From Catajapyx aquilonaris (lineage: Eukaryota), in the NCBI GenBank assembly GCA_000934665.2, contig JYFJ02000540.1:1-64000 (forward strand): 64,000 nucleotides of DNA. The letters are read 5' to 3'. The first letter of the stretch is position 1. Every line of letters starts with the position of its first letter. Under the pieces are notes generated by a model. That model made no database searches and had not been told where the DNA came from. It was given only the letters and a program-made list of their open reading frames with translations. Both the position numbers and the translations under genes were made by a program. Below, one piece after another: positions 27,596 to 56,764 of the stretch.

Positions 27596-30500
27596 CAAGT
27601 AGGAGACCTGGAAATCCCTCTCCTTCCAAGCCAGACCAATGCTTAGATAAGGAAAGTGTCACGCCTCAAGCTTATCAGTCATGCCAATTTCGAAGGACTT
27701 AGAAAGAGTTTAACGTCTGAAAACATCATTATTCGGTATGTGCATATAAAAGTTCGTAAAATAACACAAAATAACTTCTATTAATGAATCATTAACTTAC
27801 AAGTGTGTAGCACCTAATCGGGCCGTGAGTAATTTAATGGTTTAGCCTTTTAAAATGGTATAATTAGCAGCATGTGAATGAATTCTCTGAGGCATGTATC
27901 GCCTCTGGTTATGATGAGGCCCCGGGTGTCCGAATCGTCATTAGCGTGATGCCAATTAGCACGAAAAAAGAGGAAATCCTAATACCGTATTTTGTCATTT
28001 AGCAATTCAACATCGCGCAATGTCAGGCATGTCTGGTGGATTCACAATTCGTACTGATAATTTGCCTGACAATGCGATATTGCTTACAAGTACAAGGTTT
28101 ATCAGGTAAATTAGCAACGGGTAATGTAAAATTGATCGATCATTACCTCTTCACTTCCTTGGTGAAAATTTTGGCGTTGGCAAAATTCACATTACTATGT
28201 CAACTAGATGTCACTACATAAAGGAAAATTATCACTGCCCTCTTCTCCATTTCTTGCATATTCGTACACATGGAACATTACATACTGTACGCGTACTCTC
28301 TGTACCTCTGAAACTCTCTGAAAGAAATTCCACTTGATAATTTTGTTTCACAATGTGTTAACAACACATACTGCATGTCTCAGTGAAATGCATTGAAATG
28401 TTCATATTTACCGGCATTGTTCGAGTTTGCCCTAACGCGTGCTAGCTGATTCTGCTATGCGTACAATGTAAAGTGTTGTTTTCATGCTCATAAATATTAA
28501 GCGGGTTTATGGCCGTGGGGATGGAGTCTAGTTATCACAATTCTAGCAGGTAAACACTATTCACATTCATATTCCATTGTTGCTCTTCATTACTTATTTT
28601 TGCCACTAAATAAACCGAACACCCAGCCTACATAATAATTACGAGCTTCGGTTTAGGTATGGTGGTTTTAATTATAATTTCTATTAATATTGCACTGATT
28701 GGTAGCCTACACCGAACAAATATGTGCCCATTCCTTTTTTAGACAGGCCTTACTCTTACAAGCCAACCTTTCATCAGTGCAAACCGGATATTGAAAAATA
28801 CGTACCATTTAGTCACCTCCCATCCTGAATCATCCATCCTGAAAACTACTGCAAAAAAAATAGCAACACATGCAAATATGTTTGGCAGCCTGGGTTGCGC
28901 CACACGATCTAATCTTCCAGCTACAACTCTGATGCCAAGGTTTCGCAATCGATCGGAATATTTCCACCGCAAATAATCGACAGCCCTTTCCCATTTGACA
29001 CGAGGCCTACCCCGAAAAAGGGAACAAACACTTGACAAAGGCAGGCGATACCAGAGACATCCGAAATTAGACGACTCCCTTCTTTCTTTTCACACCCCCT
29101 CCATATATGAAAGGAAAAGTGGGTCGGAGGATCCGAGTTGAGTTTATTGGTATAGGATCCCATAAAGTCGACGTCACACTGGGATGTGCCCTTTTTGGTA
29201 GGCACTTCGTTACCTTGTCACATAGGGCGAAAAACGGGGGTGTGCCTGAAAAGCTGTCGCCCGGTCGTCACCCGAAATGCTGACTGGGTCCATCACAAAG
29301 GACTGCCGCCGCCCCCAACCCTTTAGATATAAGATTACACTAGCTTTTGGGGGAGGCCTTCTAGGCAATGGTAATTTAGAGGAAAGAGGCAGGGCAAGGT
29401 GGAGAAGAGTCGTCAAGTGCAGCTTCCAGGAGGTCCTGGATCGCTTCTTCGCCGTCTCCGGGGATGGATTCAATCTAAAAGGAGGGCTTCCTTCCGGATC
29501 TTATCGGCTTCCTAGACGGCCAATTAAATGGGAAGAACACTTGGGAAACGCCCCGATGATTTACCGGACTCTAAACCCCGGGCTCCTTACTGACTGATTA
29601 TTGAAACATCGATCGCAACAAAAAGTATGACACTGAGCTCATGCACAACAGTAAACCGTCATGAATAAACTTCAAGGACATTATGTTAAGCCAGTGACGC
29701 TCTCGACAGATGGAGTTGCCAAACTGATCCGCCATCTTTGTTCCACTTTTCTGATATTATTTGGAGGAATATCTTCACTTGCTGGTGTCCACATAAGGGT
29801 AGATAAATGTGGCATTGTACAACTAATAGCTGTACTTATCTACACCATTGCAAGAAAATTCTTAATCAATGTTCAACCGTCAGAGGCACCCGTCATACGT
29901 AGGATACACTCACACGTTGTACAACGTCTGGCACACCCAATCCTCTTTACAGGTACCGGCTAATTAGCCGGCGGGTGCAAATCCGAACCAGTAAAGGAAA
30001 ACTACGGTGCATTAATATTAATGTGCCATTAATATTCGGCGAATGTTCGGCCGGATTACGCGGCCCGCATTTTTGCTGCCAGTATGTTTCCGCATTCATA
30101 CGCGCTGCACTGTGCACAGCTCTTTTTGAAGCTGCCAAGCCGCCATTTTCTTTGAACCTTAGCTGGTGGCGGGTCCTAGAAAATGACAGAAAGCGTCGTG
30201 TGTGCGGGTACTTGGCGCGGAGATAACGTTTGAGGCCGCGCTTCATCAGGCTTCCTATTCAGCCCAGCCAGTTTAATGAGCGAGTGTGGCCATCCTGATT
30301 ACACGCTCTCCCAAATGTACTCCGGGGGACACCAGGCTGAGGGAGGAAAAAATGTCCTAAAGTTTTCTTCTCTAAGCCACACCCACCCCTTAATGAAAGG
30401 GAATCAGCCCCTAGCAATTATGGTAATTGAGGGCCCCCCAGAATTTGCATGCGCGTTTTACTAGGACAGGGCGAAAATCGTCTGCTCTTTGGAAGCAATG

Positions 30501-33897: not shown

Positions 33898-36388
33898 CTG
33901 ACAAAAGTAGTCCCCACACCAAATTGTATTAGTCAAATCAATCTCAATCAGTGGCAAAAAAAATCATCTAGCATAAATATTATAATAGGTTGTAAGAACC
34001 CAGCAAAAAAATGCATGCCACGATGAGAAACAAAATGGCGATAATAGTTAGCTATACTCTCATCAGATGCTGAGAGCACTTCAAATGGCAGGTTTAAATG
34101 CTGAACGGTCCAAACATGAATAGAGAATTGGCCAGTGTTCAACCTTCACCAACCTTGCTTGCATGATGACCACCGCCAACAATACTGTCATTGAAACCTG
34201 GCCGGCTCTGCGGGAGACCATTTTGACAAAACTGCACTCCAGTATAGTAGGTCCTACTGTTCTCTAACAAACTTTTTCGACACCGCACCGCTCGGAACCA
34301 AGGTTTTTTTTTGAACGGTGACAGCATGACAGCCCCTGATGAACTTCAATTCCAATCGCGTCACACATCATCGGGAACAATGTGGAAAATTAATGTAATA
34401 TTATGCGCCGTAAAGTGAGCCCTCAGTTTTGAAACACCGAATTTATAGTTTGACACACAGCCGCTAACAGGATCAACATGTACACAGGTTGGTCACCCGC
34501 CCAAAATCGGTAAAGAAAGTATATGATCCAGCGACTGTTTCGCCTGATTCTTCCAACTCTATAAAATATAATTCCCGCGGGTCCAAAAATTGTGTGTACC
34601 CCACCCTCTAAAGACCTCTCTGCAAGTTTCGACTCACTTCCCACGGCGATACAGACGCAAGAAGCAAAGTTGGCGAGAAACTTGAGCATTAACTCCGGCG
34701 GAATACTGCTCACATAACCGATCGTGTCGGAGAGGAACTCCCCAGCTAAGAGACTGCTGGGCCTTCCAGAAAACGGGAAATTGGGAAGGAAACACTGACA
34801 ATGGATGTCTTACTTTCCACCTGAAATCGATAAGTTGAGAGAACTTTCCAACAGTTGCATGTCACTGAATCGGAACTCTCTCTCCCTCTTCTCTTCTCAG
34901 ACACAACCCAACCTTCCCTTCTATTCGACCCACAGCCTCCTTTGTGAGTCCGCTGCTCCTTCCATTTCCAAGAAATTAATCTCTTGCCGGGAACAAAAGA
35001 AGAAGTAATCTCGACGGGACTTATTGTCCCCCTCATTCTCTCTTTTTTGTGTGTCTCTAGCCATAAGAGAAAAAGTTCTGCGGCAACCTCCATTTTCGGC
35101 TACAGGGTGATCTAAGGATCAGTACCAATAAATTGGCACACGTTCCCAGTTCAATAGCTGACATCACAGCAAGTGCGAAAAAAGTAGCAATAATTGCCTT
35201 AAATTAAATGCTGCCCTGATATGCTACAAGACAATCATTTGCTTACTATACAAATTTGCGACTTAATTAACTGCTAATTTAGGCATATTTATTACTTTAT
35301 TTATTAATTTATTGGCATGGGAGTAGGACCCGTTCTTCGCACAGAGATTGATAAATGAAAGAAGTTTGTAAAAAAGAGTTTGAAAAAATATCATCAGCAG
35401 ATGAATACCAAAGTTCGTATAAAAACAGATAAATCCTAAATTTGAGCATTTAGACTAAAAAAAAGTGTCGTTTCGGACTTGTCCCTGAATCAGAGGCACT
35501 TGACATCGGTGTGCCAAGTTTCAGCACTCTCAGTGCTCCGGAAAGGGGTTAAATGGCCTTGACACACATATGGACAAACGTTATGTTTTATATCATGTAA
35601 GATTAATTTGCTATTGACTGCAGCTGCTAATTTTATTCCCATGATCGTTATTGTTTTCCAATTAAGGGTCAGCCGTGTTTCGTAAAATTTATTGGAGAGA
35701 GGTCAAGCTAATTATCCAAGTTTAGGTGCTCATTAACACCAGTAGGTTAAACTGGTTCCTTCTCCCTCTCTCCACTCCTGACTTGGGCCAGTGCACCACC
35801 TTTCTCTATACCTCTTGATGGCTTAGCGGGCAAGGCACCTGGGGCTAATCAATAGGGGTGATCAGGCCAATAAATTGCAGTCGGTGGACAGGGCAGGGAG
35901 GGAGGGAAAAGTGGTGGGGAGGGGTGGTGGGGAAGGTCGAGCTATAGCCTGGTAGGGATCACTATGGAGCCACAATTCGGATTTAACCGCTCTTTAACCC
36001 CCAAAGGTACCAGGTGGAGCAAAAACCGATCTTTTGCTCAAACATTTGTGGCCTGTTTAAACAATGGAGACCCCGGCCCCGGTTGGGTGAGGCTAAATAT
36101 ACATTGCATCGGTGGCTGGAGGCATATCGAACTGCAAATTCATGTGACATTTCGCTCCAATTGCGATTCGGCCGATGCTTTTGTGGCGATCACATTGTTG
36201 AGATTACGCAGTCTGGTGTTGCCAGAATGTGCTTAATCACAATGTATTATACGTGAAATCACATATTTTGTCGTGGAGAAGGAGATGTGACAGAGTCACG
36301 GTTTGGTGACTCTGGGGAGGCGTGACACTCTCCTTATCTAAGCATTGGTCTGGCTTGGAAGGAGAGGGATTTCCAGGTCTCCTACTTG

Positions 36389-36460
36389 GCCGTGATCGTA
36401 TAGTGGTTAGTACATTGCGTTGTGGCCGCAATAACCCAGGTTCGAATCCTGGTCACGGCA
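36389..36460 (+). tRNA. tRNA-His-GTG: tRNA-His (GTG), copy B (inside a Dscam intron, antisense to Dscam)
   Basis: Identical to copy A. T7 terminator at about 36496. Confidence 0.96.
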
Positions 36461-37132
36461 GCTTATAACACAAGCTGTTACGGCAAGGAGACCGCTTTTT
36501 TTCTCTCAATTCCTGTTTTTACTTATAAATTATCATGACATAATATGTGAAAGATGTTTACTTATAACTCCACGATATTATTTTATTTACGTCGAGTGGG
36601 TTACATCATTAAAGACCTCGGGAGAAGAACAATCAAGGTCCCCTGTGTTTTTTCAAAAATGAGCTACGTATCTCAGAAGATAGTTCCACTAGCGTAGGAT
36701 ATGATGGGATGGTCGTGGTTGTACAGTACAGTAGCCTAATGATCGTAGGTCAAAACAGTGGGGTTTACAATGGAGCCTTATATGGACCATCGAAATTTTA
36801 AATTAGAATATCTCAGTTTCACCTGAGGTGGACCCTGTTCCTTCTTCCCCCGAGGTCGTCAATATATTGGTGTCTCATATTCCGAATTTTCACCCATGCT
36901 GCCTTATTTTAAGGAAGTGTAGTTGCTTTCGGACCAATTGGACGGATATTGTTGGAGGGGTTATTAAAATATTTGCTTCTGGTAATGACTACAAGCAACA
37001 TTACAGAGTCTGAACTGTAATAAATTTCCGAGAGTGGAATGACCTACGATAACCGACGATAAGCACTATCTGCATGTCATTTTAGATTGCAAAGGTTAAA
37101 ATGACGCTTTCATTCCTCCTAATACATGCGAG

Positions 37133-37133
37133 A

Positions 37134-37170
<37 letters not shown>

Positions 37171-37177
37171 GTAGTAG

Positions 37178-37241
<64 letters not shown>
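37133..37241. repeat. (TAT)n / (TAG)n microsatellite
   Basis: About 110 nt of ATT repeats interrupted by AGT. Confidence 0.95.
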
Positions 37242-37440
37242 GATAGTGTCTAACAATATATAAATAAAATAATACTTTAAAGACTGGAAATAATACGAAA
37301 AAATGGTCTCCTTGCTATGCCAGCTGAGTAACGCAGGAAGAGACCACACTAAAATTTTGTTTGTATCGTGACTTATTTCAAAAACGGGAAATGAGATTCA
37401 AAAAAGCGGTCTCCTTGCCGTAACAGCTTGTGTTATAAGC

Positions 37441-37512
37441 TGCCGTGACCAGGATTCGAACCTGGGTTATTGCGGCCACAACGCAAGGTACTAACCACTA
37501 TACGATCACGGC
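37441..37512 (-). tRNA. tRNA-His-GTG: tRNA-His (GTG), copy C (inside a Dscam intron, same strand as Dscam)
   Basis: As copy A except A>C at the D/anticodon-stem junction (window position 37487). Confidence 0.95.
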
Positions 37513-40389
37513 CAAGTAGGAGACCTGGAAATCCCTCTCCTTCCAAGCCAGACCAATGCTTAGTTGTCAAGGAAAGTGACTTTGCCTCACTCGCGTCACA
37601 ATATCCATGACCGTGTTGGCCTGTGGTCTCAGTGGCCAACCGTGTCTTCAGGCCTTGCTCAGACTGACACTAAAAAATGGAACTTCACACAAATTAAACT
37701 ACTGGCAGAAAATGAAAGTCGTGCACATCGTCGCTACTTTTGTTGATTATTATTGTTGTCAGCAATAATTATCCCATACTTTCTATACAGCGTAAGTTTT
37801 TCGTGGCGGAGTTGCAATTATTATGCAGGCTTTTCCGGCTGTATGAGTGTGGCTGGTCGTCACACACACTACCACTATATATTTACGCCTCAGTTGACAA
37901 ACCTGGCTTGCCACCTGGTCGACATCCGAGTCAACAAAACTCAGTCCCCCAACTTTATGAATGTGGTGTTGAAAATAGCATTTCCTGAGAGCCCACGACA
38001 CTGACTAAAAAGGCGCCTTCCTTCCCTCCCCCAAAACTCTCTCTGCAATCCTCCTGATACCGGTATCCGCAGGAGATTTATTCATCATAATGAATCAGGC
38101 AGTGAAAGTTAGATCCGGATGTTGAATTACACAATCTCGGCAGCTTGGGTTTGCTGGCTGAGGCTGCAAGGCCTCCCGCATTAGCATCCGGAGGGAAGGT
38201 AAATCACCTGAGGGGGCCCTACCAAAATCTCTTCTTTTTTTCCCTCCAACGCCTGTCCTTTTGGAGCCCTTTTCTTCCAGGAGACTTTATGCATGCATCA
38301 CTTGTCTACACGGACGCCTCCATCGCGAAGCCAAGCTCATATATTTAAAGTCACTTCCTCACTTCCCAACTTACTCATTTCGAGTCCTGGGATGTATATA
38401 CGACATGGCCATCTGGTTAATTTAAAGTTGCGAGACGCTAAGAAGAGGCCGTAAACTTTGGGAGGAAGAATCGTATCATTCGTATGGCGTGATGTTGATG
38501 GCGGTACATTTTTATGTATAGGCAAGACTCTGGGGACATGGATCAAAATTGTTGGCTCCACGACAACCAAAAATGTAACATTATACAGGGTGTACCACTC
38601 ATTGGGTATATCTGGCAGTGTAAAGCACCTAGTCCTTACTCCCCTGTGGTGTTGTTGACACATTCCTGGCCTGATAGTTTGTGCCTGAGCAGAATAGAGG
38701 GGAGAGGATGAGACTAGGAGACGCATCAGGGAGGCTTGAATGGCCCCGAGCAATGTGGATGAGTGCAGTGGAAGTTTGCCTTCTCGGAAATGGAAGCCCA
38801 GGGTTCATAATGCAACGCGCATTCACTTTGTTGGGGTTCGTTAGCAAGCGCGCAAGGGGTGGGTTAGAGAGTGGGGAGGGTCCCTCCCGGTCCTCTATAC
38901 CTGGTGCTCCTACCCTATTCATTAACGGCCCAGGATGAGCCCCACGTAGGGCCTTACAAAGGCTGGAAAAAGAGAGAGAGAAGCTCATAGAAGGGAGACC
39001 CTAGCAAGAACTAGCCCATTAGCCATGCCGTTTCTTTGCTCCCTACATGCTGATGCCACCCCAGCTCAAACACGAGTCAAAACCTCAGCTATGCCCAAGT
39101 TATACCGTGTGGTTGGGTGATCACAGACCCCCAAAAGCCAGAGGGTTTGACCCTCCCCATGGCTGCGTAAATAATTCCAGGCACACCTCGCAAACATGAC
39201 CTCACATTACAACGAGCTACGAATTTTATCGTACAAAAAAACAAGTCCAAGTTTTTACTGTAATAATCCAGATATTTACAAAAAAAAAAAATATGTCATA
39301 TCCTCAACCCCGACCGTGTGTGTGTTTGATCCGGCTTGATCGTACCGATTCAACAAGTGCAGATTGGGTCAGACCTGGACGACACAAATGAATCGGTAAT
39401 ATGCACCGCACCTGCTTGCAAGCCCTGAAGTCACTTGTGTTTGCCAATCGCGATAAAAGCACTCGCTTTTTTTTTTCCCACTTTGGGGCCGCCCTCGATG
39501 TTTGCCTTTGCCCGGTCGCAAGTCCACTGTTATTGCACCCCGTTCGGCTGGAACCGGTTTTTTTCAGAGCTGTGGGATTTGAAGCGCGTATGGATGAGCA
39601 GATTATACGCGATGAGTACCGACCGTAAATGAGTCAAAAATCAGTCTGCCCTGCTGCATGCCATACATCCCAAAAAAATAATACCGAGAATAAATGGTCG
39701 CAAGTTACATGAACCTAACTATGGAATTAGGTCGGACCTTTTTTTTAAAAAAAAAAATCCGAAGACAATGGCGTTTCTTCCCGGTTGAACGGACGTCTTC
39801 AGAACCAGTCGAGAGTGAAAGCAGATTCCAATCTCCTTTCTCATGCAAGCCTTCTCTTCTTCTTTTTTTTCATTTTGGCAAAAACCTTCAAATGAACATG
39901 ACCTCACACTCCAACCAATATCTGAGTGACTTGCCATGTTGTTCCTAACAGCTGGCCCGCGAATAATCGGATTTGCAGCTTAAGTCGGACGCCAAACCTT
40001 TTATTTAATTTCCCGCCAGGATAGATCCAATTTTCACTCCCCCCCAGAAGCCCTCATTTTACCCCCCCCCCCCACCCCCGCAGTCCACTTTCTGATTAAT
40101 TTGACCCTCTCCGGATGGTCACATGTGATCCGGATTTCGCTATACGGTCAGATATCGATCTTTAATTTTCATGGAATCCCCCTCCGTTTTACGGGTTCTC
40201 CTGCCATCTACCGGGGGGTTAGATCGACACTAGACAGGCTTTTTGGACTAATCTGCGAAATGGGGTCAAGAAAAAGGGCGAGAGAGAGATACACGGTTGG
40301 TCAATCCCTCAATGCTTGAGGCGTGACACTTTCCTTATCTAAGCATTGGTCTGGCTTGGAAGGAGAGGGATTTCCAGGTCTCCTACTTG

Positions 40390-40461
40390 GCCGTGATCGT
40401 ATAGTGGTTAGTACATTGCGTTGTGGCCGCAATAACCCAGGTTCGAATCCTGGTCACGGCA
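40390..40461 (+). tRNA. tRNA-His-GTG: tRNA-His (GTG), copy D (inside a Dscam intron, antisense to Dscam)
   Basis: Identical to copy A. T-run terminator at about 40497. Confidence 0.96.
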
Positions 40462-40918
40462 GCTTATAACACAAGCTGTTACGGCAAGGAGACCGCTTTT
40501 TTTGTCTCATTTCCCGTTTTTTGAAATAAGTCATGATATACTCGTATTTATAAAATTTTAGTTTGGCCACTATTCTCCAAAAATTATTTTATTATCTGGG
40601 TTGATATACAGACTGATTCGCATTTTTGGGCTGGCAGTATGTGACGGTGTGGGTGATTTATTTAGGCGCTGATAATATAAGTACGATATGAGCCATATGA
40701 TAGTTGCATATTTTAATAATCATTATGATAAGGTCTAGTTTTCTAACCTTAAAAATACATAAATTCGCCAATTTGATCTAATGGCTTTTCCCGAACCTCT
40801 AGTAATACGTATTCAAGAAGCTCGCCCTATCACGGGGTTGCATAAATAATAATTTAAAACAAAATATTAAAGAAGTTTGTATTTATTTATTTTTTTGCAA
40901 ACGGCCGGAAATCAACTA

Positions 40919-43267: not shown

Positions 43268-43346
<79 letters not shown>

Positions 43347-44605
43347 TACAGCATTGGTGAATTTTTTAGAATTTTTGTACTTCATCTTCATTTGTCGCCA
43401 GAGCCTTCAAGTTTCGCCATTTTTGCGAGAACAATAACACATATTACATTATGCAACACGATTTTTGTCCAGGGAAATTCATCGCTATTTCCATGTTGCT
43501 TAGGTCACTGGTAACTCATAATTGAGCATTCATTTTGTCTGGTATTTGTTTTTGACCTTGGGGCAGTTGCAGTCAAAAAACCAAATTCCTGGAAATAGTG
43601 CATATGGGTCATTTCGAATCAAGTAGCCGAAATGTTGCTAGACCATCTCGAAATTTGCTGAAAAATATCACCGATGTATACATGACTATGCCATAACAGG
43701 TCATGTCTAGTTTCAGGCAAATTACGCAATACCGTTGGGAGGGAAAAAAATCTCGAAATTTAGGAAAATAGTGAAAATCAGGCCCTTTTGGATAATTTTT
43801 TCGGTTAGTGGAAGTGGTTACACACCAATAAGCATTACATCAAATGAAAGAGGATGACGAGGGGAATGCGTCTATCGAATTAGTTCTCCTCTCAAATGTA
43901 ACCAGAAAATTTCAAAATTCTCGGACATGTGACCGAACACGTGACCGATGGAATGCCACGCACATTTTTTTGGTTACACTTTAGAGGAAAACTAATTGCA
44001 TAGTCGCATTCCCTTCGTGATCCTCTTCCGTATTGCGTATTGGGGTTTGACCACTTCTCCGAATGGAAAAAAATTACCCGAAAGGGCCTGATTTTCACTA
44101 TTTTCCTAAATTTGGCGATTTTTTCCCCCTCCCAACGTATTGCGTGTATTGCGTAATTTGCCTGAAACTAGACATGACGTGTTATGGCATAGTCATGTAT
44201 ACATCGGTGATATTTTTCAGCAAATTTCGAGATGGTCTAGCAACATTTCGGCTACTTGATTCGAAATGACCCATATGCACTATTTCCAGGAATTTGGTTT
44301 TTTGACTGCAACTGCCCCAAGGTCAAAAACAAATACCAGACAAAATGAATGCTCAATTATGAGTTACCAGTGACCTAAGCAACATGGAAATAGCGATAAA
44401 TTTCCCTGGACAAAAATCTTGTTGCATAATGTAATACGTGTTATTGTTCTCGCAAAAATTGCGAAACTTGAAGGCTCTGGCGACAAATGAAGATGAAGTT
44501 CGAAAAATCTAAAAAAAAATCACCGGTGTTATACTTGTCCATACACAACTTTTGACATCCCGTACGATTTAATCGGACAACTTTCGCTTCTTTCGCTCCA
44601 CCCAA
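43123..44605. mobile_element. Non-autonomous hAT-like foldback DNA transposon (near-complete palindrome)
   Basis: Termini TAGGGTGGAGCGAAA...TTTCGCTCCACCCAA flanked by an exact 8-bp direct repeat GTGTCCAA (43115-43122 and 44606-44613). The arms are inverted copies almost to the centre (~43910/43965). No transposase ORF. Confidence 0.85.
43205..43340 (+). mobile_element. 5'-truncated non-LTR retroelement (LINE/SINE) 3' end with (TAA)n tail
   Basis: ~65 nt of unique sequence plus an (AAT)n tail, flanked by AATAATTACA(A/G)CA direct repeats (43192-43204 and 43341-43353). Absent from the matching position of the opposite arm of the foldback. Confidence 0.78.
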
Positions 44606-46514: not shown

Positions 46515-46855
46515 CTAGAAGATCAATCATATCATTAGTAAAACATGATTAAAAATCAACATAGTTAGCATTAATTCAATGAATAGTAGTCTGGAATTAA
46601 CACTCGTTCGCTGATATAATCGCCATGATTGTCAACTAAATTGCAGAAAATGGCAATTTAATCAAAATAACTGAAATGCAGAGCTTCATTTGACTGATTT
46701 AGAGATCTCACATTTCTTAATCTGAATTATGATTTGAATTTTGCAGATTGCCTTACACTCTATTTGTGACAAATTTCTTGAACATTAATTTTGGGCTCTG
46801 TAATTTCCCCATCCGAAAATTGACTTGAGCGTCAATGAGCTTTTGTCCCACTTAC

Positions 46856-47731
46856 CACCACCTTTGGTGGAGGCAGCAATAGTTTTGCTCCTCTTTCCCT
46901 CTCCGACCATGTTGACTGCACTTAGGTACAGCTGGTAGGTGGACCCGCACTGGAGATTCTCCAGCACGTAGTTGTTCTTGTCCGGATCCAACTTGACCTG
47001 TTGCCAGTCATCGCCACCTCTCTGGTAACCCAAGATGTATCCGGTGACCGGACTTCCTCCAGCCTCCGGAAGCCGCCACTCGAGAGCCACCGATCTGGCA
47101 GAAGAAGCGACCACCCTCAGCTCCGGTGCAGCTGGTGGCACCTGCACCACCACCTCGTACACCACCTCGTCCTTTCCAAACACGTTCTCGGAGTGACACG
47201 AGTAGTTGGCCGCGTCTCCAGCTTGAACCGAGCTCAGTCGGAGGGATCCGTCAGGAAGGAGTTGGACCCTGCCCGACCCGTTTTCCGGCTGGGTCACTGC
47301 GGCCATCACCAGCTGACCCCGTGCCCTCCAGGTCCTCTCCGGGGTTGGGATTCCCACCACTGGGCAGGCCAGAGACACAGCAGTCTGCCAGGGCACCACC
47401 AAGCGCCTGGAGAAGGCCGCTATCCTAGAGGGCACTCGAGACGTCGGAGTCTGAGACACTATCTGACCCGGAGGACCTTCTCCGACCGCGGTTGAAGCCG
47501 TGACCCAGAACTCGTAGTGCTGGAACTCGCGGAGACCACGCGCCTCTAGAAGTCTCTCCTGGTGACCCAGCACCACTTCCTTCTGGGCCTCCTTTGAACT
47601 CTGCTCCAGCGCACGCTTGTACACCGTGTACTTCAGGATGTTGCCGTTGGTCTCCTTTGGAGGCAGCCAGGTCACTAAGATGGAGTCGGAAGTCATCACA
47701 AGCGCTTTTAACTTCTCAGGTGGGCCTGGGA
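46856..47731 (-). CDS. Dscam: Dscam exon, FNIII-4 + Ig10 + FNIII-5
   Basis: VPGPPEKLKALVMTSDSILVTWLPP...YEFWVTASTAVGEG...DAANYSCHSENVFGKDEVVY...LQCGSTYQLYLSAVNMVGEG, matching the Dscam FN4-Ig10-FN5 order. Acceptor tttacag|, donor GTG|gtaagt. Confidence 0.95.
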
Positions 47732-48520
47732 CTGTAAAAAACAATGGAACATTATTATGACATAGAGACATGTCGTAAACCTAAAATCATTAACAACAAA
47801 TTTCTGTGGCGTTATGTTAGAAGTAAACATTTTTTTTGTCCAGACAAATCGTGTTCAGGTCAGTTTATGTCTAATAAAATCTGATTCGACCTAATCGGCT
47901 GATTATTGTTTATCATATTAAATTCTGTTATTAGAATCAAAGGCGACGTTCCAGTTACAATCATTAAGTAAATTAATTGTTTGTTGTGGATTCTTGAATA
48001 CATAACAATAAATCAATAAATACCGGTAATTTTTAATTTAATACTAATTGAGCAATGGTGCTTTACAGTACACTTGGTTAACTACCTCGTCTTTCAAATT
48101 GCTAAGATCAATTACGCCCAATATTACCACTGCATTGCAGGCAAGATTGCAGGTATGCGATCAGAGAGATGTTGTAACCTCGCCTCCCCAACAAAACCAC
48201 ATCAAACATTTCCGGCATCAATAAACTTAACAGACTATGAGACGCGTAAGTAGGCCTACTCTGTCGGCGGTCTTACTTCCGTTATGCAACCGGTGCTTTA
48301 ATCAGACAGTACAATAACATCCCGGAAATAACATCTGCAGATATAACCGTTCCCACTATGCATCCAGGCGATATTCATCCTGCTGATTAACAGTAGGGAA
48401 GGAAGGAATAAACTGGCCGTATATCATTCGCCTGAAGTGGTGCAACCGGCCTTTAATTCATTTTCCACACCGGTTCTTTTCCATCCCACTTATTAAGGGG
48501 AGGTCGATACCAGCACGTAC

Positions 48521-49757: not shown

Positions 49758-49828
49758 CTTCCATTTAACTTTCAAGGACTCTGCGTTGAGGGCTTCCACT
49801 CGAACGTCTTGTGGAGGCCCGCTGGGAG
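49758..49828 (-). CDS. Dscam: Dscam exon, FNIII-2 N-terminal part
   Basis: APSGPPQDVRVEALNAESLKVKWK. Acceptor ccgcag|, donor AAG|gtaggt (phase 0). Confidence 0.9.
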
Positions 49829-49928
49829 CTGCGGAACAAGAAAAGAGTGAGAGCCAGGTCATGAATCAGGAGGAGGAAGAATGGCCATTCGGATGACAGT
49901 GTCGAGAAAGAGGCTTGCTGAGTGGTAC

Positions 49929-50228
49929 CTTCAGGGGATGTGACGATTGAGGCGACGTCACTTGGACGACTTGCACCCAGCTCGTTGACCGCTAGGACTC
50001 TGAGGTGGTAAGGCGTCGCGGGGGTCAGTCCTGCTACGACGCCACCCTTTTGGGTACCATGCACGCTGACGTTTAAGGCTCGGAGGGACCAGTCCTCGCT
50101 GGCTCCTTTGTACTGGACCACATAGTGGGTCAGAGGACTGTTGCCGTCGTAAGGAGGTGACCAAGCAAGGGTCACGGCGCGGCTTCGGACTTCCTCGACT
50201 CGGACACCCACTGGCGACTCTGGCGCCT
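49929..50228 (-). CDS. Dscam: Dscam exon, FNIII-1
   Basis: EAPESPVGVRVEEVRSRAVTLAWSPPYDGNSPLTHYVVQYK...LTPATPYHLRVLAVNELGASRPS. Acceptor ttttcag|, donor AAG|gtacca. Confidence 0.93.
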
Positions 50229-50672
50229 CTGAAAAAAAAATCAGTAACCATGTACAACCCTTCAAACATCCATAAGTCTTTAAAAACTAGTGGTACAGTA
50301 CGTCCCAAGAATCTGCAGATCCTGTACACATTTCAAGAGGAAGAAGTGCATTAGACTGCAATCATTTAATCTTGTACTGTACCCGCTTCTTTTAACCACA
50401 CAGTGTGCCTTCAACTAGGTTAAGTAATTGGACAGTTCCAAGGAATTGCTGCAACTGCGGGCAAAGTGAAAGGAACTGTCGGTTACAGTACGCCCAAGCA
50501 GTTTCGAACCAACTCAGCCGTATCAACGCAGTGCAATCACAATGTATTAGATGATTGGGGTGTTCTTTATTTCACGACCCAACAGAGCGGTTCAGCCATG
50601 CTATTTCTCATCCTCTCAAAGCCTTAGAACTTGGCAGCAGAAATGCTTTCCAAAAAAAAATCCGTTCCTCAC

Positions 50673-55175: not shown

Positions 55176-56764
55176 TATATTAGAAAAATAGAAAATAACA
55201 TTAGAAAATTCTAATATGCATGCTTCTAGTCTGGTTATTAACATTTGACCAATTTTAATTAACGCACGACTTGGCACAAAATTGTCATGCCTGTAACTTT
55301 GATATTTTTAGTCAAGAAATTATACGCCTGACTACTCTCTCGGTTTTGTTACATATTCTACTCATTTTTAATGATACTGTACGCGCTCACATATGCCAGA
55401 GAAGCGTAAAATTCGAAACTATTTTCGGTTTCCTACATTTTACTACAATTATAAATTAACAACCCCCGCAACTTCGCTTGTTCACACATATTTTTTTTTT
55501 AACTATATGATCCTGGCGGCGTTTCTCTAAATAGAGCTCGAAATTCCTGACCCGCACTGTTAACCCTCGGAGCGTTTTGTGCTATTCATATAAACACAGC
55601 TGGCCTGTTGAGTTATGCACTGCGAGATCATTAATTAGGCAGACTTAGCAGCCTGCGGACCTCACAATAGCAGAAGTCACATCGCCCTCGGAAAAACACA
55701 AATTTTGAAAGCCCCCCCCCCCCCCCNACCACTAGTGTTATCCATGTGTCTGACTAAAACTGGTTGGCCTCCCCCTCGACATATCCCGAGTACTTCACAG
55801 GATTCCTCCCCGTGCATTTTCCAATTAGGACGACAACAGCACAACACTCTAAATGAGTGTAACATCGTCAGAGCGCGACAGTAACTGCTGTACGGGTATT
55901 ATTTCATTCCGGGGGCTATCCTCCCCCCCCCCCTTGCAAAACTATCCGGCACAGAGTGTTGCATGAAACCCCATTTTTCACGGCCGACATATCTGTAAAT
56001 AGCCGTTCTTTTGAGCCCCCTGTTTTTGGCACCCAGCTGGAATGGAAGGGTTATAATGGGGGAAGTCCCCCTATGTTCATATAACACCCAGATCGACGGT
56101 CCAGTTGGCACCGGATACCCATTTTTTATCAACCTGCCTTTGAATTTCCGCTTTTCGCTCAATATTTCCAAATTGCAATGGAGGAAATAAGTTCACAGGA
56201 GAGAGAGCACGTGTACGGAGTTATAATTAGAGTCCCAGCGAATATATATAAATCGGCTAATTAGGGGGAGGGAACGACGCTCATTTTGCGGCCTGAAACA
56301 CCATTAATCTCAGATCCTATTGTGATCATTACGGAGCATGTACAGGTTTTGGAGGCTGGGAGGAAAAAAAAAATCCAGGCATTTTCCGGGAATGAAACCA
56401 GTAAAGAAAAGTGCTCCGGATCTTCCGGTTGGAGTTTAACCCAATCGGTTTCCCAGCCAATCAGAGAGCTTGGTACTCAAACTCGGTTGAGTGCCGATCG
56501 ACGTACCCGGATCAAAATTCTTTTTTTGGGGGGGCGCTCTCTAAGAAATAAAGTTTTACTGCCAAAAACTTGAAGGAGAATGGAAAGAAACATGATCCTG
56601 TTATATACCTTGATAATGACTACAACTTTTCCGGATGGAGGGGGATGTATAGGGATAGAAAACAAAAGTTGTGTCTGCTTCTTTCCTTTGTCTCCCGATG
56701 GGTTTGGATCGCCTGAAGGAAGCGGAAACACAATGGAAAAAAAATATAGACAAAAAAAACTTAC

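Follow-up and report, generated by a model that had tools for sequence, protein, structure and literature searches.

Four histidine tRNA genes and the parts of their precursor

The DNA considered here is a 64,000-nucleotide (nt) stretch of the genome of Catajapyx aquilonaris (contig JYFJ02000540.1 of assembly GCA_000934665.2, positions 1 to 64,000), referred to as the window and used for all coordinates. It holds four tRNA-His(GTG) genes and two tRNA-Val(AAC) genes, all placed by ARAGORN inside 17 kilobases. This report concerns the putative precursor RNA of the histidine genes, followed mainly in the fourth gene (copy 4): its 3' trailer is complementary to its 5' leader and also contains a near copy of the acceptor strand of the tRNA itself. 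Leader/trailer complementarity of this kind recurs among unrelated tRNA-His families. The three other copies are arranged as follows.

27482-27646, minus strand: copy 1 unit, with the tRNA at 27524-27595 and the trailer at 27489-27523
36338-36502, plus strand: copy 2 unit, with the tRNA at 36389-36460 and the trailer at 36461-36495
37400-37563, minus strand: copy 3 unit, with the tRNA at 37441-37512 and the trailer at 37406-37440

Copy 4 matches the tRNA family RF00005 of Rfam with 65.7 bits (E = 7.7e-14; gathering score 29), and every stem pair of its cloverleaf is standard. The gene ends ...CACGGCA and passes into the trailer and then the T7 run, without an encoded CCA and without any run of four T in the trailer ahead of T7. 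Runs of T terminate transcription by RNA polymerase III (Pol III), which is the role given to the T7 run here. Between 40000 and 41000 the tRNA alone passes the Rfam threshold, with no second RNA family; matches to DUF805 RNA (20.7 bits) and BTH_s39 (16.1 bits) fall below it and were taken as chance. The parts of copy 4 needed in the following are listed below; all are on the plus strand.

40339-40375: upstream block (-51..-15), the same in all four copies and holding the purine run GGAAGGAGAGGGA; probably promoter-proximal, untranscribed DNA
40376-40389: putative 5' leader AGGTCTCCTACTTG, 14 nt, read from the sequence
40377-40384: leader strand GGTCTCCT of the terminal stem, from sequence and fold
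40385-40389: linker ACTTG, unpaired in all predicted folds, with G at -1
40390-40461: tRNA-His(GUG), 72 nt, discriminator A73 (ARAGORN, Rfam)
40459-40479: hairpin GCAGCTT-ATAACAC-AAGCTGT, 7 base pairs (bp) including G71.U, from the minimum-energy fold
40462-40486: 25-nt segment, made of a 17-nt palindromic piece and TTACGGCA, read from the sequence
40479-40486: mimic of the acceptor 3' strand with mock discriminator, TTACGGCA, from duplex energy and sequence
40487-40494: trailer strand AGGAGACC of the 8-bp terminal stem, from duplex energy
40497-40503: T7 run, Pol III terminator, where the identical unit ends on its 3' side in every copy

Pairing of leader and trailer and the acceptor-strand mimic

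The leader strand GGTCTCCT is the exact complement of the trailer strand AGGAGACC, and together they form eight Watson-Crick pairs worth -15.6 kcal/mol. The resulting stem spans leader positions -13..-6 and leaves the 5-nt linker ACTTG unpaired beside +1. It is not contiguous with the acceptor stem, as 25 nt lie between A73 and the trailer strand of the stem. The last eight of these 25 nt are the mimic TTACGGCA, which agrees at seven of eight positions with the true acceptor 3' strand and discriminator TCACGGCA (40454-40461) and can pair with G1-A7 of the tRNA through six Watson-Crick pairs and one G.U pair. In the alternative fold that this allows, a hairpin with strands 40459-40465 and 40473-40479 captures G71, C72 and A73 from the acceptor end. 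An earlier inspection of the letters alone (the sequence-only reading) had described the 8-bp complement, a decoy acceptor strand with the same seven pairs, and a CAGCTT/AAGCTG hairpin over C72-A73. All three are present, the hairpin reaching one base further than described. That reading had also noted that the neighbouring valine genes terminate at once, and the tRNA-Val(AAC) genes do have a 1-nt trailer followed by the T-run, with no leader/trailer pairing possible. We found no description of an acceptor-strand mimic in a pre-tRNA trailer in the openly readable literature.

When the trailer was shuffled 20,000 times, a leader helix of at least 8 bp arose in 0.38% of the shuffles and a mimic matching at seven of eight positions in 1.5%.

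Judged from its sequence, the 25-nt segment would most simply be an insertion or duplication bounded by the imperfect 8-nt direct repeat TCACGGCA/TTACGGCA. Without it the trailer would open with the stem strand, an arrangement that exists in several of the metagenome families described below and in a contig from another study, here called X6. Among 24 listed sequencing runs, four contain half or more of the words searched for, and all four belong to a single sample and study that may be the source; the other 20 contain a fraction of 0.10. Contigs from four other studies match the window only within 40387-40462, the tRNA body, and then diverge; missing cover beyond these positions does not count as absence, nor does the run labelled 'RNA?' (X9) count as evidence of expression. 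X6 has an identical tRNA with TG at -2..-1, and its trailer, AGGTGGAC..., begins directly after A73; paired by hand with leader positions -11..-6, it forms four Watson-Crick and two G.U pairs and again leaves a 5-nt linker.

Two other origins for the extra sequence were considered and rejected. Against a transposon origin of the 17-nt palindrome, that piece has no second copy in the window and is unconnected with the 371-nt inverted repeat close by. A reading of the 25 nt as a bulge-helix-bulge intron was dropped, as the gene needs no splicing and animals are not known to splice tRNAs anywhere but at 37/38.

Identity among the four copies

With up to three mismatches allowed, the 35-nt trailer occurs four times in the window with none (0.00 occurrences expected by chance), and the 14-nt leader is the same in all four tRNA-His copies. 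The sequence-only reading had reported both, with the caveat that identity might reflect duplication or conversion. That caveat is borne out by the upstream DNA, where identity extends beyond what had been recognised: the 37-mer at -51..-15 likewise occurs four times in the window without a mismatch. In all six copy pairs the 164 nt from -51 to +113 are identical, save for a single A-to-C change at linear position 26 of the copy 3 tRNA (about 37487 on the minus strand), a variant also present in several metagenome tRNA-His loci. Outside this core the copies share 68-100% of positions at -76..-52 and 64-81% at +114..+160, the adjoining DNA overall being put at 64-84%; farther out they are no more alike than unrelated sequence. 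Copies 1 and 4 are 100% identical across 190 nt (to 27671). This profile suggests an older duplicated unit of about 240 nt that diverged by a fifth to a third, sparing the 164-nt core.

The flanks of tRNA genes are normally hypermutable and unconstrained, as summarised in PMC6130373. Since selection acting base by base on 86 flank positions of the unit is implausible, homogenisation by gene conversion is the simplest reading of the identity. The identical unit ends at the T-run in all pairs, and the run itself varies from T6 to T8 among the copies; this edge fits either a constraint bounded by the transcript or a conversion tract halted by the T6-T8 differences. A tRNA-derived short interspersed element or other mobile unit was rejected, given that the boundaries vary by pair and similarity falls stepwise, with no sharp common edges bearing target-site duplications. 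Because 37 nt of upstream DNA that is likely untranscribed have been homogenised as well, the identity of the copies is uninformative about function.

Leader/trailer complementarity across other tRNA-His families

A scan with a 39-nt query, running from the anticodon stem to A73, matched 50 metagenome loci, two loci in prokaryote-labelled assemblies and none in viral contigs. The leader or trailer of the window was found in none of the 50 metagenome loci, and the two prokaryote-labelled loci have ordinary trailers. Together with copy 4 these 52 loci gave 53 genes, of which 50 could be used. These make up 26 flank families, each entered with one representative, and 20 of the 26 have trailers of at least 5 nt.

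For each trailer, the duplex formed with the leader of the same gene (-16..-1) was compared with those formed with the leaders of the other families. Across the 20 families, cognate duplexes beat non-cognate ones with a mean rank of 0.24, and none of 20,000 permutations did as well; the excess persists when the window is left out and two related families are merged (n = 18, p = 5e-5). The paired part of the leader usually lies at -10..-5, with four or five unpaired bases beside +1, a geometry to which the window conforms with its stem at -13..-6 and 5-nt linker. Leader/trailer complementarity with an open linker is thus a recurrent feature of unrelated tRNA-His flank families. Mononucleotide shuffles of the trailers in the other families gave z-scores mostly between -2 and +1, but leaders are rich in pyrimidines and trailers in purines, which makes this shuffle a weak null, and it was superseded by the cognate/non-cognate comparison. 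Six non-His tRNA genes on the same loci had a mean rank of 0.50, that is, no excess, in a small sample; this is a weak hint that neighbouring tRNA genes lack the complementarity, and the control is too small for a claim of histidine specificity.

These comparisons bear most directly on a purely historical account, which treats every one of the three pairings, even the terminal stem, as an accident that was carried along when the 164-nt unit was recently duplicated or converted and that has no effect on the RNA. Homogenisation is indeed evident across the copies, shuffled trailers in the other families often pair as well as the real ones, given their pyrimidine-rich and purine-rich composition, and covariation was not found there. 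Such an account does not, however, anticipate cognate complementarity in 18 unrelated families, nor its absence from the six non-His genes (small as that sample is), and a perfect 8-bp helix is rare among the shuffled trailers of the window. We therefore consider it unlikely.

Two side observations concern the ends of these transcripts. In one metagenome family with 23-24-nt trailers (L022, L023, L024, L030, L046 and L047) the trailer opens with TGGTA, copying leader positions -5..-1, which read (C/T)GGTA; a TACCA downstream can pair with either the trailer TGGTA or the leader copy, so that this is another trailer repeating a neighbouring strand.

The other observation is about position -1. 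In a eukaryotic nuclear tRNA-His, G-1 is expected to be added post-transcriptionally by Thg1, without being templated opposite A73. In the window -1 (40389) is G, as it is in all six pieces of foreign contigs extending to the 5' end of the tRNA, five of which also share T at -2. Among the 49 metagenome tRNA-His loci with a leader, -1 is A in 46, C in three and T in none; a T at this position would pair with A73.

Predicted folding and the status of the mimic

We favour the reading that the four are tRNA-His genes of the ordinary Pol III sort whose terminal clamp is of a known type, and that the mimic is a tolerated by-product which makes the precursor bistable on paper. We would put its probability at roughly 0.55, and several observations weigh against it. 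The first comes from folding the 127-nt precursor from -14 to the T-run with RNAfold, the check proposed along with the sequence-only reading; the energy model ignores tertiary contacts, Mg2+ and proteins. The unconstrained minimum-energy structure is the register-shifted fold built on the mimic (-45.4 kcal/mol; z = -3.1, with two of 200 shuffles equally stable), and in the ensemble the true acceptor stem has a probability of 0.11 against 0.46 for the mimic helix. As the true acceptor reaches 0.27-0.92 in 18 other families, the gene would, in this model, be expected to misfold. A second point is that the helix and the mimic arose jointly in none of the 20,000 trailer shuffles.

Third, a further foreign contig, X7 (one contig, depth 2.6), has its parts in the order TCGGTTGATG, TTATGGCA, TGGGACATC and carries the 10-mer TGTTATGGCA at the place of TGTTACGGCA in the window, a one-letter C-to-U change that keeps the pairing as G.U. 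Its hairpin over G71, C72 and A73 is spelled otherwise (C72-A73-U-C with GAUG, plus G71.U and a GGUU loop, drawn by hand). These sequences hint that the layout of mimic and hairpin persists in a second organism. Further points concern the clamp itself. The stem is not obligatory, given that the trailer measures only 0-3 nt in six of the 26 flank families. For the largest metagenome family, represented by five of its eight loci so that each distinct flank enters once, RNAalifold settled on local hairpins with none of 31 pairs compensatory, and a leader/trailer helix drawn there by hand is 88% paired, a score equalled or exceeded by 383 of 500 shuffles; a compensatory change seen by eye in this family was dropped, the helix being no better than shuffles. 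Finally, a transcription start downstream of about -6 would preclude the stem altogether.

The energy differences behind the first of these points are small. Constrained to the true acceptor stem, the precursor folds at -44.7 kcal/mol, and constrained to the full cloverleaf at -43.0; with the same D, anticodon and T arms, the mimic state lies at -42.4 and the canonical state at -39.1 kcal/mol, and the predicted path between them has a barrier of 5.2 kcal/mol on leaving the canonical state and 8.5 on leaving the mimic state. The alternative fold retains the D, anticodon and T arms in a multiloop and is not a long hairpin of the Dicer type. Order of synthesis matters in these predictions: the minimum-energy fold of a nascent chain of 86-95 nt contains the true acceptor stem, invasion by the hairpin sets in at 104-110 nt, and synthesis of the stem strand then brings up the mimic fold. 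The two mutually exclusive folds put forward in the sequence-only reading are thus recovered as a bistability of the nearest-neighbour model, and the leader/trailer helix, listed there among the three possible pairings, occurs in both. Being compatible with both folds, the 8-bp terminal stem is therefore no part of any switch.

Against this background the mimic might be more than a by-product. In a conformational switch, mimic and hairpin would be under selection, and the register-shifted state, as a poor substrate for RNase P and RNase Z, would gate maturation or the release of a trailer RNA, for instance under the control of La or temperature. The two folds are near-isoenergetic and separated by a low barrier in the model, and the mimic is peculiar to this gene: its duplex with the 5' acceptor strand (seven pairs) is worth -10.9 kcal/mol, compared with -5.9 or weaker in 18 other families, leaving the window as the sole one of 19 flank families with such an acceptor mimic, besides the failure of shuffling to produce it together with the helix. 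The G.U-preserving change and the respelled hairpin of X7, both read by hand, point the same way. A precedent for bistability is pre-tRNA-Ile(UAU)/miR-1983, in which La favours the native fold (Hasler 2016, as described in PMC8051267). As there, the flanks of the window precursor allow a competitor of the cloverleaf and a U-tail for La is present; the isoleucine alternative is a long hairpin that enters the microRNA pathway, whereas that of the window is a shift of acceptor register with the inner arms kept.

Several facts tell against a switch. Identity among the paralogs says nothing for it, the upstream DNA being equally homogenised, and X7 is a single foreign contig whose 3' part is alike to the window at 18 of 23 positions aligned by hand, which also fits plain common descent. 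The terminal stem of X7 is reduced to 4 bp, and its extra hairpin pairs would be expected by chance about once in seven (an estimate). The true acceptor strand is, moreover, transcribed first, and tertiary contacts that could hold it lie outside the energy model. On balance we think selection for a switch improbable, and prefer to regard the mimic as tolerated.

Comparison with known systems

Extended pairing between the ends of pre-tRNAs has been described in other eukaryotes. As quoted in PMC8457004, yeast pre-tRNAs whose leader and trailer extend the stem by more than 6 bp need a mismatch or bulge at -1 (Lee 1997), and human pre-tRNAs have extended stems with -1/+1 bulges (Gogakos 2017). 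The precursor of the window resembles them in having a helix, here of 8 bp, and unpaired bases, here 5 nt, at the RNase P site. It differs in that its stem is separated from the acceptor stem by 25 nt, and transcription of its leader is putative. A related case treated in the same source is mascRNA/MALAT1, where pairing of the flanks around a tRNA-shaped unit affects processing by RNase P and RNase Z and the bulge at the junction matters (PMC8457004). There too sequences flanking a tRNA-shaped unit can pair, but mascRNA/MALAT1 is the 3' end of a vertebrate long non-coding RNA made by RNA polymerase II, whereas the window has a true tRNA gene.

The trailer itself invites comparison with the 3' trailer fragments known as 3'U-tRF or tRF-1, which PMC10275265 describes as cut by RNase Z. 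In the same manner the trailer of the window, from the discriminator to the T-run, would come off whole, at about 40 nt. Compared with the usual trailers, given as 5-15 nt in PMC6130373, it is both longer and richer in structure, and its accumulation as an RNA is putative.

Sequences beyond the precursor and elsewhere in the window

The purine run GGAAGGAGAGGGA of the upstream block (40353-40375, present in all four copies) repeats the AAGGAGA of the trailer. By hand it is complementary, over about 10 pairs with one bulge, to CTCTCATTTCC (40504-40516), which lies between the first and the second T-run; such nested pairing needs a start far upstream and read-through of the first T-run.

This raises the question of a longer transcript, starting upstream of -38 and occasionally reading through the first T-run, in which the purine run GGAAGGAGAG (-37..-28) would pair with the leader or, past the terminator, with CTCTCATTTCC, with nested stalks or another small RNA as the outcome. 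In its favour, the four copies agree completely in the upstream block and all have a second T-run downstream; GGAAGGAGAG and CUCUCAUUUCC can form about 10 pairs with one bulge (by hand), and a fold of 193 nt contains an upstream hairpin. Yet tRNA genes with internal promoters start a few to about 15 nt upstream, according to PMC6130373. Transcription by Pol III stops efficiently at a T7 run, and Rfam shows no further RNA here; the segment past the terminator varies with no corresponding change upstream, and chance pairing comes easily to purine and pyrimidine runs. A transcript of this extent seems to us highly improbable.

Several other features of the window were noted. The two tRNA-Val(AAC) genes (23869-23950 and 24836-24917), separated by 967 bp, match over no more than 82 nt, the tRNA with a few bases, and their flanks cannot be aligned; this limited identity, set beside the profile of the histidine copies, speaks for a homogenised histidine unit. 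An inverted repeat at 43362-43732 and 44146-44516 has 371-nt arms that are 98% complementary, with 413 nt between them; it is flanked by extra 99-nt arms at 82% and has the look of a foldback element or something like a transposon. There are long microsatellites, (ATT)n/(AAT)n, at 37113-37271, beside copy 3, and at 43269-43358 further downstream. The window is poor in long open reading frames, and two of the five that were scanned are fibronectin-III/immunoglobulin (Ig) exons of DSCAM type: the frames at 46785-47771 and 49765-50265, both on the minus strand, encode fibronectin-III, Ig I-set and DSCAM C-terminal Fn3-like domains and are probably exons of a DSCAM-type adhesion gene. A single N occurs, at 55727.

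Interpretation

Under the reading that we favour, gene conversion (concerted evolution) rather than selection on each base would keep the 164-nt unit uniform in the four paralogs. The primary transcript would start near -14 and end in the T-run, and its ends would pair as the 8-bp stem, leaving five leader bases free beside the RNase P site, an arrangement shared by most tRNA-His genes of this type elsewhere. The stem may serve to hold and shield both ends while presenting a loop at the cleavage site. The 25-nt insertion would have brought in the palindrome together with a copy of the acceptor strand, and with them a near-isoenergetic competing fold. We posit that this fold is a tolerated misfold, settled in favour of the cloverleaf by the order of transcription, in which the true strand comes first, by the tertiary contacts of the tRNA and by La on the U-tail, after which RNase Z would cut off the trailer, about 40 nt of RNA.

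A more ambitious variant would make the clamp specific to tRNA-His in invertebrates, extended by the mimic and the C72-A73 hairpin here and in the organism of X7. The precursor would then toggle between the cloverleaf and a locked, register-shifted form, as a checkpoint for the one tRNA whose 5' end has to be rebuilt by adding G-1. We regard this as a speculative extension, and quite unlikely.

Were the mimic fold functional, the gene would offer a natural case of a nuclear pre-tRNA controlling the processing of its own ends through strand exchange in the acceptor stem. The four copies also illustrate that, among clustered tRNA paralogs, sequence identity is no proof of function. What the comparison across families provides is a clean statistical case for leader/trailer complementarity, with the linker at the RNase P site left open, as a recurring trait of unrelated tRNA-His families.

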